Source of the DNA: an uncultured Eubacteriales bacterium
GTDB lineage: Bacteria > Acidobacteriota > Aminicenantia > Aminicenantales > Aminicenantaceae
Assembly: GCA_964448655.1 (NCBI GenBank)
Contig: CAYUXD010000002.1
Coordinates: forward strand, 1 to 38,095
DNA length: 38,095 nucleotides
Reading direction: 5' to 3'
The translations under genes were made by a program, and so were the position numbers. The notes under the pieces were generated by a model, which saw only the letters and a program-made list of their open reading frames with translations, was not told the DNA's origin and did no database searches. Shown here in pieces: positions 27,754 to 29,229 of the stretch (positions are counted from its first letter, which is position 1; every line of letters begins with the position of its first letter).

Positions 27754-27908
27754 CGAAAATCATATTAATATCCATGATGATGCGAGTCAAGGAGACTCCA
27801 TCTTTTAGAAAAAAAGGCGTCAAAGAATATCCAAAGACGATGCAACTTTTCTTTCTCGTTTGACGTATATATAAGTGAGATTGAAAACAAATGATAAAGG
27901 AGATATAG

Positions 27909-28094
27909 ATGAGATTCAGAACAAAATTTGCGATTTTTTTAATGGCTGTTTTACTCACTTTTGTCGGATTTAACCTCATTGCTTTTTCACCAGCATTGGA
28001 TTTATTAAAACTCAGAAAAGAAGCTGGCAATGAAATCATAGCTAATTTTCTGGTTAAGGAAGAACCAATCACTAAACATTCCGGTAGTTCATAA
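27909..28094 (+). CDS. hypothetical small membrane protein (61 aa)
   Basis: Strong Shine-Dalgarno AAGGAG (27897-27902) 6 nt before the ATG. N-terminal TM helix FAIFLMAVLLTFVGFNLIAF. The only + strand coding candidate in the 19.5-kb - strand block. Confidence 0.4.
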   Translation: MRFRTKFAIFLMAVLLTFVGFNLIAFSPALDLLKLRKEAGNEIIANFLVKEEPITKHSGSS

Positions 28095-28233
28095 GGACGA
28101 GGCTCTTATGATAAAAATAATGAGAAGCGAAATCATCAAAATCTGGAATTGGTTGGTAATTGACTTTGAGAAGCTGATGCTCTCCACTTCCAAAGGTAGA
28201 TTAAGCCTTCAGACTCAACCGATTCCCATCCTT

Positions 28234-28282
28234 TAAGAGGCTGCGGTTTCTCCCAGGCGAGTAAATTGCAGCCTCTTTTTTT
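28234..28282 (+). terminator. candidate intrinsic terminator of the small + strand cassette
   Basis: Stem AAGAGGCTGC (28234-28243) pairs with GCAGCCTCTT (28268-28277) and is followed by a T-run to 28282. The loop is rather large at 24 nt. Confidence 0.45.
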
Positions 28283-28364
28283 ATCCTCTTCCCGCATTTT
28301 TCACCATTTATACTTAATTCTTAATTTCTAATTGAGGGGAATATAACAGAAGAGTGTGCTATTT

Positions 28365-28748
28365 AGGAAGCATCTCCATATCTGTTATAACTCGTTGCTA
28401 AGGCATAGGTTTTGGGAAATAGCCGCAGCGACCATTGAAGAAAGGCTCAGGCTATATGGCTCTAAAACACGTTGCTTTTGCCCCAGCGAGTCAAAAGCAA
28501 CTCGGATCAAGGCTTCGCTCTCCTCTCCTTCGGAGAGCAACCTTGCCCGCTCAGCCTCTCTCACGGTTTTTTCACCATACAGCCTTCGCCAGGCACGGGG
28601 ATCCGACGTAGTCGGGCGGCGAGTATGTCTGAGCAGGGCGAGTTACGCAGCCGCCGAGAAGAGCGAATGGAGAATGGCGTTAAAAATCTGAAGGGAGCTA
28701 GGCTATTTCCCAAAACCTTTCCTAATAACGGAAATGGAGATGCTTACT
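28365..28748. repeat. non-coding GC-rich element bounded by inverted repeats (candidate structured RNA or MITE)
   Basis: AAGCATCTCCAT (28368-28379) pairs with ATGGAGATGCTT (28734-28745). GGTTTTGGGAAATAGCC (28408-28424) pairs with GGCTATTTCCCAAAACC (28701-28717). The core holds local hairpins, for example GTTGCTTTTG/CAAAAGCAAC at 28471-28501. Hand count gives 109/180 G+C over 28501-28680. Confidence 0.45.
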
Positions 28749-28749
28749 G

Positions 28750-29229
28750 TTATTTCTTCTTGACAAGAACTTGAGCCCAGGAAGCAATAGCTACTCCCTG
28801 GCCTTCTGCACCCAGCCCTTCATTCGTCTTAGCTTTTATTCCCAAATCATCCTTTCCAACCCCAAGGATTGGGCACAAAACTTCTTTCATCTGAGGGATA
28901 TAAGGGGCTAATTTAGGCTTCTCAGCAATGATAATAGAATCGATACTTAGAATGTCCATATCCTTCTCGTTAATCATGCCGACAACCTTTATCAGTAACG
29001 CAGTACTTTGAATATCTTTATATCTTGGATCTGTGTCTGGGAAGATCTGTCCGATATCTTTCTCTCCTGCAGCCCCCAAGAGCGCATCTATAAGGGCATG
29101 AATCAAACAATCTCCATCAGAATGACCCTTCAGTCCCATTGGGAAATCAATCTCCACTCCCCCTAAAAAGAGTTTCCTCCCTTCCTCTAACCTGTGGATA
29201 TCATAACCAAGACCTGCTTTAATCCTCAA
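28750..29229 (-). CDS. ispF: 2-C-methyl-D-erythritol 2,4-cyclodiphosphate synthase
   Basis: 159 aa. Motifs GYD.H.L, GHSDGD...HA..DALLGA and IG..FPDTDP. Confidence 0.9.
   Translation of the reverse strand: MRIKAGLGYDIHRLEEGRKLFLGGVEIDFPMGLKGHSDGDCLIHALIDALLGAAGEKDIGQIFPDTDPRYKDIQSTALLIKVVGMINEKDMDILSIDSIIIAEKPKLAPYIPQMKEVLCPILGVGKDDLGIKAKTNEGLGAEGQGVAIASWAQVLVKKK

Follow-up and report, generated by a model that had tools for sequence, protein, structure and literature searches.

Non-autonomous DNA transposons of the MITE type normally carry the decaying remains of a parent insertion sequence (IS). The Correia/NEMIS and ERIC/IRU elements are short intergenic repeats that are bounded by terminal inverted repeats (TIRs) and amount, when transcribed, to essentially one long hairpin; to our knowledge, neither has an active partner transposase in its host. 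REPINs, which are mobilised by RAYT (Y1) enzymes, lack the combined signature of TIRs and target-site duplications (TSDs) and cluster around the RAYT gene.

Correia/NEMIS of Neisseria and ERIC/IRU of enterobacteria are presented as hairpin MITEs in PMC3184786. According to the summary given there, the Chunjie MITE of Geobacter uraniireducens Rf4 (Chen et al. 2008) is 178-235 bp long, has ~21-bp TIRs and is flanked by 9-bp direct repeats; it is described as A+T-rich, present in one species, predicted to form very stable hairpins, and inserted next to or into genes. For the Bacillus cereus group, the same source describes bcr1 and further group A bcr repeats (Okstad 2004; Klevan 2007; Kristoffersen 2011) as ~155-nt mobile repeats; bcr1 is transcribed, forms a two-stem cruciform and has 5-bp direct repeats of the TTTAT type, and its description includes no separate TIR shell.

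Here we analysed a locus in a 38,095-nt stretch of DNA from an uncultured bacterium, referred to as the window. We conclude, with a probability of roughly 0.85, that the segment at 28366-28747 is a MITE, a non-autonomous DNA transposon whose family has abundant copies in Candidatus Aminicenantes, and that a shell, probably moved in trans, carries a structured cargo. The element is ordinary in kind, as a MITE; its family is undescribed, unusually structured and modular, and our literature search found no paper on MITEs of Aminicenantes.

Architecture of the element downstream of ispF

The element proper spans 28366-28747 (382 bp), is non-coding and lies directly downstream of ispF. Both of the long imperfect inverted repeats by which the first-pass annotation had described the segment as closed were found: an outer repeat, in which 28365-28388 pairs with 28725-28748 (24 nt, 88% complementary), and an inner repeat, in which 28407-28424 pairs with 28701-28718 (18 nt, 100% complementary). 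The bounds of the element were corrected to 28366-28747 because the TSDs fix its ends, and the TIRs of the window element are ~23 nt long. The left TIR, GGAAGCATCTCCATATCTGTTAT, whose terminus AAGCATYTCCAWWTCCGT is repeated dozens of times across the own genome, occupies 28366-28388 on the + strand; the right TIR, ...ATAACGGAAATGGAGATGCTTAC, occupies 28725-28747 on the - strand. The bulge reported earlier for the left arm takes the form of an asymmetry between the spacers that separate the outer from the inner repeat: the left spacer (28389-28406) has 18 nt, and the right one (28719-28724) only 6 nt.

The interior is GC-rich, as had been claimed, with a G+C content of 0.535-0.58 over 28400-28699 (200-nt windows) as compared to 0.32-0.45 in the flanks. 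The two hairpins proposed in the first pass are also present, one with a 10-bp stem (28471-28480 with 28492-28501) and one formed by GCTCTC/GAGAGC (28517-28522 with 28533-28538). The predicted fold is very stable on either strand, at -160 kcal/mol for the + strand (z = -5.5 relative to shuffles) and -165 kcal/mol for the - strand (z = -6.6). Rfam searches of the window gave no match at the gathering score and chance-level matches only at E up to 10, and those of the compact copies described below gave nothing at E up to 0.1, in agreement with the earlier view that no known RNA family is present.

Two mutually overlapping + strand ORFs (111 and 100 aa) are present in the element, and these open frames are what would favor the reading that the region encodes small proteins. 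No match in Pfam was found for these two ORFs, in a search that covered four internal ORFs of the element. Furthermore, related copies are set apart by indels of 1 nt and 8 nt and by compensatory changes at paired positions, and the same DNA is found in both orientations relative to genes. The indels indicate that the + strand ORFs are not coding, consistent with their earlier designation as spurious, and a protein-coding role has practically no chance of being correct.

The window copy sits in a convergent gap, after ispF and after a terminator-like hairpin of a small + strand cassette. This hairpin, AAGAGGCTGCGGTTT...AAATTGCAGCCTCTT followed by TTTTTTTAT, is located at 28235-28277 and is likely the intrinsic terminator of the + strand ORF cassette at 27909-28236. 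A scan for promoter and terminator consensus sequences identified none inside or beside the window copy; the terminator at 28235-28277 was probably missed by the scan because its loop is 13 nt long.

Dispersed copies, target-site duplications and empty sites

The copy-number check by BLASTN that the first-pass annotation had proposed yielded 85 matches (HSPs) on 61 contigs of the own MAG (2.75 Mb, 470 contigs), with a median identity of 90.8%, and 32 of 41 related genomes also gave matches, each of them in many copies. Copy numbers in the dozens, in the own genome and in its relatives, point to a mobile element. The 20-nt core motif identified 114 genome loci, almost all of them in MAGs of Candidatus Aminicenantes or Acidobacteriota, and the TIR terminus gave 29 and 13 matches in two congeners, as compared to 0-1 for a reversed control. 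In viral contigs, the core motif was absent and the TIR 18-mer was present as single matches only, at approximately the number expected by chance from a rough estimate. The elements are of consequence for annotation, since they break Aminicenantes MAG assemblies, as seen in the 29 of the 85 own-MAG matches that are located at contig ends, and since they yield spurious 60-120-aa ORFs and mimic RNA genes; their recognition removes these false leads.

The copies are modular. A short form of ~250 bp has a compact core between the left and right arms, and the long form, to which the window copy belongs, has the short-form parts plus a module of ~150 nt, module B. The junction between the left arm and module B is spanned by ten other copies in the own genome, full-length long-form copies with 84-91% identity are present in the genomes G003, G004 and G006, and a 388-bp copy in G005 is flanked by a perfect duplication, CTATTTTAT. 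The long composite has multiplied in its own right.

Shell-only mini copies of 44-98 bp were also observed, and some of them have duplications, as seen for the copy at C37:486-529 with an 8/9 match. The finding that shell-only mini-elements also duplicate their target indicates that the termini suffice for movement; the TIR shell alone would be able to transpose, and the interior would be its cargo.

Mini-elements of 44-70 bp, which amount to scarcely more than a pair of TIRs, were located in the genome G000 at C37:486-529, C5:8387-8430, C8:14764-14830 and C12:3548-3616. In the window element, the inner arm (GGCTATTTCCCAAAACC) is similar to the TIR (AAGCAWCTCCAAAWCC), and by this likeness either arm of the full element has the appearance of a mini-MITE; the full element may have begun as a composite of two mini-MITEs. 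In addition, some copies of module B and of the core contain further small palindromic insertions, of the GGGGTCAGAC...GTCTGACCCC and GGGGCCTGTCCCC types (G000 C22:12600-13000, C75:8915-9214, C295:3055-3388 and C181:330-800), and G000 therefore has several layers of nested repeats.

Flanking TSDs, which the first-pass annotation had named as a sign of a mobile element, were found with a length of 9 bp. Perfect 9/9 flanks were observed for 9 of 92 candidate TIR pairs, all located exactly 2 nt outside AAGCA, and further pairs had 8/9 (5 pairs) or 7/9 (11 pairs) matches. Altogether, 25 of the 92 pairs had flanks matching at 7/9 or better, as compared to 2 of 92 for control flanks taken 15 nt further out, which never exceeded 7/9. 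For the window copy, the left duplication TGCTATTTA (28357-28365) and the right duplication TGTTATTTC (28748-28756) match at 7/9 only; the right copy holds the ispF stop codon (28750-28752, - strand).

The empty site was observed in G003, where the sequence reads GAGTG-TGTTATTTA-CTTCTTC with a single, uninterrupted 9-mer, and the corresponding arrangement in the window is TGCTATTTA[element]TGTTATTTC. The target 9-mer TGTTATTTA included the ispF stop codon, and its duplication preserved ispF. At the same site after ispF, G006 has the element, with the contig broken inside it, and G001 and G005 have only a remnant of the right TIR, with ispF intact. A reciprocal case was observed at window positions 27837-27845, where the window has a single ACGATGCAA and G003 has a copy.

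The G003 copy at this second site (L029 1439-1893) is ~455 bp long and is flanked by ACGATTCAA and ACGATGCAA. In roughly this position, a metagenome contig that is syntenic with rlmB (L236 597-1333) has a 737-bp copy, probably a nested one, and G001 has a ~250-bp copy a few bases from the site. For G004, the gap between the terminator hairpin and ispF (L027 1141-2542, G004:C33) is occupied by an unrelated 1.4-kb segment, with a - strand frame fragmented into 59, 79 and 83 aa, and has neither a MITE nor an empty site.

These observations also bear on a reading that links the segment to ispF or the ispDF operon, either as a single-copy gene for a structured RNA or as a cis-regulatory element, and that fits the position directly after ispF and the very stable predicted fold. 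However, the element is present in multiple copies at unrelated loci, is absent at the G003 site, is deleted in G001 and G005 without damage to ispF, and matches no Rfam family. Relative to neighbouring genes, the copies numbered 17 versus 19 for co-directional placement, and 27 were in divergent and 17 in convergent regions; this lack of an orientation preference speaks against cis-regulation. A single-copy RNA linked to ispF is refuted by the empty site and the copy number, and we assign it a vanishingly small likelihood.

The copy number, the 9-bp duplications and the G003 empty site indicate that the segment is a mobile element, a MITE: it is short and has no transposase gene, it shares TIRs with the other copies, the duplication has a fixed length of 9 bp, and the copies are dispersed and polymorphic. 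The first-pass annotation had left a structured RNA gene and a mobile element side by side; the mobile element is borne out by the copies, the 9-bp duplications and the empty site, and the single syntenic RNA gene is refuted.

The folded core, module B and a second shell

In other Aminicenantes lineages, a compact core form of ~195 nt was observed, whose closing arms are wholly different between lineages and still complementary, and whose interior is an asymmetric conserved core. RNAalifold analysis of 34 distinct compact copies gave 42 pairs, 18 of which exhibited compensatory double changes. The cells forming a standard pair amounted to 95.0%, as compared to 86.1% in shuffles and 30-53% with the partners slid, and the cells changed on both sides numbered 150, as compared to 51 ± 8 in shuffles, with none of 500 shuffles as high. 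The ~150-nt core is predicted to fold into a multi-helix junction, and the nested helices that the first-pass annotation had pointed out are real in the sense that compensatory changes keep them across the order.

The core folds better on the + strand than on the - strand, in its consensus energy (-30.2 versus -22.8) and in its mean single-sequence energy (-73.7 versus -61.5 kcal/mol), and its internal helices contain 40 G-T versus 19 A-C pairs. This + strand preference was graded moderate because the structure had been predicted on the + strand. In addition, two helical blocks, GAUUUAGCCUUC and GAAUGGCGUUAAAAAUC, pair with each other and never vary, and invariant blocks such as GAATGGCGTTAAAAATCTGA, both unpaired and helical, are retained throughout the order although the arms are entirely replaced. 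The invariance of GAUUUAGCCUUC/GAAUGGCGUUAAAAAUC suggests that these blocks may be recognized in a sequence-specific manner.

A covariance model of the core, R1 (153 positions, 37 pairs), identified 22 copies in the own genome. R1 matched 26 of 40 genomes of the order (17 of 23 genera), with up to 34 copies per genome, and none of 150 genomes sampled from the remainder of the phylum, 11 of which represent other orders of the same class. The core was missing from 14 of the 40 genomes of the order, indicating that it is dispensable.

For the window copy, R1 matched 28561-28700 on the + strand with 82.9 bits (E = 1e-18), as compared to ~155 bits for the compact copies. The inner inverted repeat serves as the closing helix P1 of the core, with its 5' arm at 28407-28424 and its 3' arm at 28701-28718 (both + strand); the sequence of the P1 arms is lineage-specific, and their pairing is nonetheless kept. 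The 5' conserved segment of the core, GCAGCGACCATTGAAGA, was identified at 28425-28441 (+ strand) by alignment to short-form copies in the own genome and to compact cores of other lineages, and is split from the remainder of the core by module B (28442-28590). The junction of the window copy comprises the hairpin CCGAC-GUA-GUCGG, the helix GGCGGC/GCCGCC and the invariant GAATGGCGTTAAAAATCTGA at 28672-28691, whereas the helix gcucuuc/gaagagc is without its 5' strand at the canonical place. The lower R1 score of the window copy is explained by module B, which separates the 5' segment at 28425-28441 and displaces one helix strand; the R1 match begins within the 3' end of module B, with 28561-28590 common to both.

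Module B, the second structured repeat, is ~150 nt long, lies within the 5' half of the core and contains the hairpins at 28471-28501 and 28517-28538. It is also present elsewhere in the own genome, both alone and inside another shell, which at C13:19295-19522 has a perfect CAAAAAAGA duplication. For 22 distinct copies, 12 of 41 predicted pairs in module B exhibited double changes, and the hairpin at 28471-28501 covaries, as seen in GUUGCUUUUG/CAAAAGCAAC, GCCGCUUUUG/CAAAAGCGGC and GCGAGAUUU/AAAUCCCGC. The consensus energy of module B is lower on the - strand (-43.0 kcal/mol) than on the + strand (-26.3 kcal/mol). The core and module B are thus predicted to prefer opposite strands, which suggests that each may be 'read' from a different strand in the window composite.

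The CUGAUGAG motif, which is seen in some copies, had raised the idea of a hammerhead; this idea was rejected, since the motif is absent in the window lineage and lies within a covarying helix. A search for an ORF-bearing version of the core found no case of the 5' and 3' conserved blocks lying 0.5-5 kb apart.

In other lineages, the core is located inside elements with CCTGGAYTATTCA ends. Exact 4-bp duplications (TTAA, CTAG, CTAT, ATAA and ATAG) were observed for 6 of 33 pairs of these ends, as compared to 0-1 in controls, with none of 9 bp, and the core was enclosed in 13 of the 33 pairs. The shell with 9-bp duplications and the shell with 4-bp duplications therefore carry the same structured cargo with two insertion chemistries. 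The CCTGGAYTATTCA shell, found at loci that include L047, L062, L079, L087, L091, L093, L099, L132 and L144, has two differing subterminal regions, CACGAGTCGAG and CATAAAAAATG.

The conservation of the core across the order in two shells exceeds that of an ordinary MITE, and 'plain selfish DNA' may be an incomplete description. We tentatively consider that the core could be a functional single-stranded module, RNA or ssDNA, whose invariant blocks GAUUUAGCCUUC/GAAUGGCGUUAAAAAUC would be bound by an order-specific protein, and which would have been caught at least twice by unrelated MITE shells (9-bp and 4-bp) and kept by selection; this proposal is possible, and the odds are against it. A related reading, which we regard as somewhat less probable still, is that the core, or the core with module B, is a functional structured RNA family transcribed from each copy, with the MITE shells as mere vehicles. 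Such an RNA could serve either the host or the element, by binding a protein, as a guide or in regulation, for example. The strong covariation of the core helices, the better folding of the + strand, the persistence of invariant blocks such as GAATGGCGTTAAAAATCTGA while the arms change, the presence of the same core in two shells, and the R1 matches within a single order would all speak for an RNA family. However, promoter and terminator consensus sequences are lacking in or beside the window copy, the copies have no orientation bias relative to host genes, and the core is dispensable within the order. Furthermore, the window core is split by module B with one helix displaced, at the cost in R1 score given above, and yet this form has multiplied.

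The structured modules could also have spread as folded ssDNA by means of a tyrosine HUH enzyme, of the IS200/IS605 or RAYT-like type, with the TIR shell being incidental. Y1_Tnp (PF01797) genes are present in 7 of 7 genomes of the genus, the fold is strand-specific with its excess of G-T over A-C pairs, and both module B and the core have copies that lack the GKAAGCATC shell, all of which would fit such spreading. However, none of eight fetched Y1 loci has a copy of the element within ~1.5 kb, and G007, G014 and G015 have many copies and no Y1 gene. The 'naked' cores of other lineages proved to be enclosed by a different TIR shell, one with 4-bp duplications, and the window element has TIRs and a 9-bp duplication, a signature that HUH transposition does not make. 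Spreading by an HUH enzyme is accordingly improbable, clearly more so than the RNA family. The Y1_Tnp genes number one to four per genome of the genus (in G000, C57:5077-5337, C63:13-312 and C192:4511-4777; L158-L165), with stop-to-stop frames of up to 358 aa, and one G000 frame has an internal TAA.

Partner transposase and relation to known systems

For the MITE at 28366-28747, a transposase, probably of the DDE type, would be supplied in trans and would recognize the ~20-nt TIRs GKAAGCATCTCCAWWTCCGT; the ends of the family shell are also given as GKAAGCATCTCC. Insertion would proceed into AT-rich intergenic DNA by a 9-bp staggered cut, and at the present locus the target TGTTATTTA would have held the ispF stop codon, such that the duplication left ispF intact. 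The cargo would be the order-wide ~150-nt core, with its fold predicted best on the window + strand and with module B in its 5' half. The fold would be kept for the persistence of the element lineage, acting in cis as RNA or ssDNA, and not for the regulation of ispF.

Candidate partners were sought by transposase family. IS66 elements have ends of the GTAAGC... type and make 8-9-bp duplications. An IS66-derived MITE would call for an IS66 transposase (PF03050) in genomes with recently moved copies; this transposase was found in 0 of 10 genomes, by a search that matched 4 control genomes, and an IS66-derived MITE was rejected on this result. The IS1 transposase (PF03400) was found in 0 of 12 genomes, and the search for IS256/Mutator (PF00872) yielded one 53-aa fragment only, in G002, which does not adjoin a TIR. 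A PF01609 IS of G004 and G006 was rejected as the partner, because its ends, ATATTCCCCATAT, are unrelated to the MITE termini; this IS is 1.63 kb long, encodes a 447/448-aa transposase (L151 and L152, 1084-2713) and is 83% identical between the two genomes.

No pair of TIRs 0.6-6 kb apart that brackets a transposase was found in the own genome, in G003, in G004, or among the 114 genome loci and 119 metagenome loci; the widely spaced pairs in this range enclosed only ordinary host genes between two MITEs, or nested MITEs. All-versus-all clustering of the ORFs of the own MAG yielded no multi-copy protein. Since the binning of MAGs tends to lose IS contigs, and short contigs likewise contain too few IS elements, the failure to find the transposase is weak evidence.

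The element is both a MITE and the carrier of a conserved structure. In contrast to usual MITEs, it has a folded core that covaries across an order, occurs in two shells and accommodates a second module nested within it. Should the fold have a role in transposition or as RNA, this would be a rare bacterial case of a structured nucleic acid as transposon cargo, and would offer a handle on the dynamics of mobile DNA in an uncultured, environmentally abundant lineage. If the core is a selected module, it would represent a mobile, self-spreading family of structured nucleic-acid genes and not passive filler.

As far as the available description goes, the Aminicenantes element resembles Chunjie in being non-coding and size-variable, with a similar TIR length, 9-bp repeats, stable hairpins and a gene-proximal location; it differs from Chunjie, as described, in that its interior is GC-rich, modular and covarying across an order. 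The likeness to bcr1 is one of kind and is likewise drawn from the published description: both are mobile repeats with a ~155-nt scale and a non-conserved genomic distribution, in which compensatory changes maintain the fold. Unlike bcr1 as described, the Aminicenantes element has 9-bp duplications, a separable shell and a junction fold with invariant blocks, and belongs to an unrelated phylum.

The element shares with REPIN and REP-BIME repeats a high copy number of palindromic intergenic sequences, a structure-dependent conservation and the presence of Y1_Tnp genes in the genus, whereas it has clear TSDs, unlike REPINs, and the Y1 genes are not flanked by it. With Correia/NEMIS and ERIC/IRU it has in common that it is short, TIR-bounded and intergenic, with long hairpins and with no partner transposase found in the host by the searches described above. 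Unlike these elements, the Aminicenantes element has an asymmetric, covarying core that is common to different shells.
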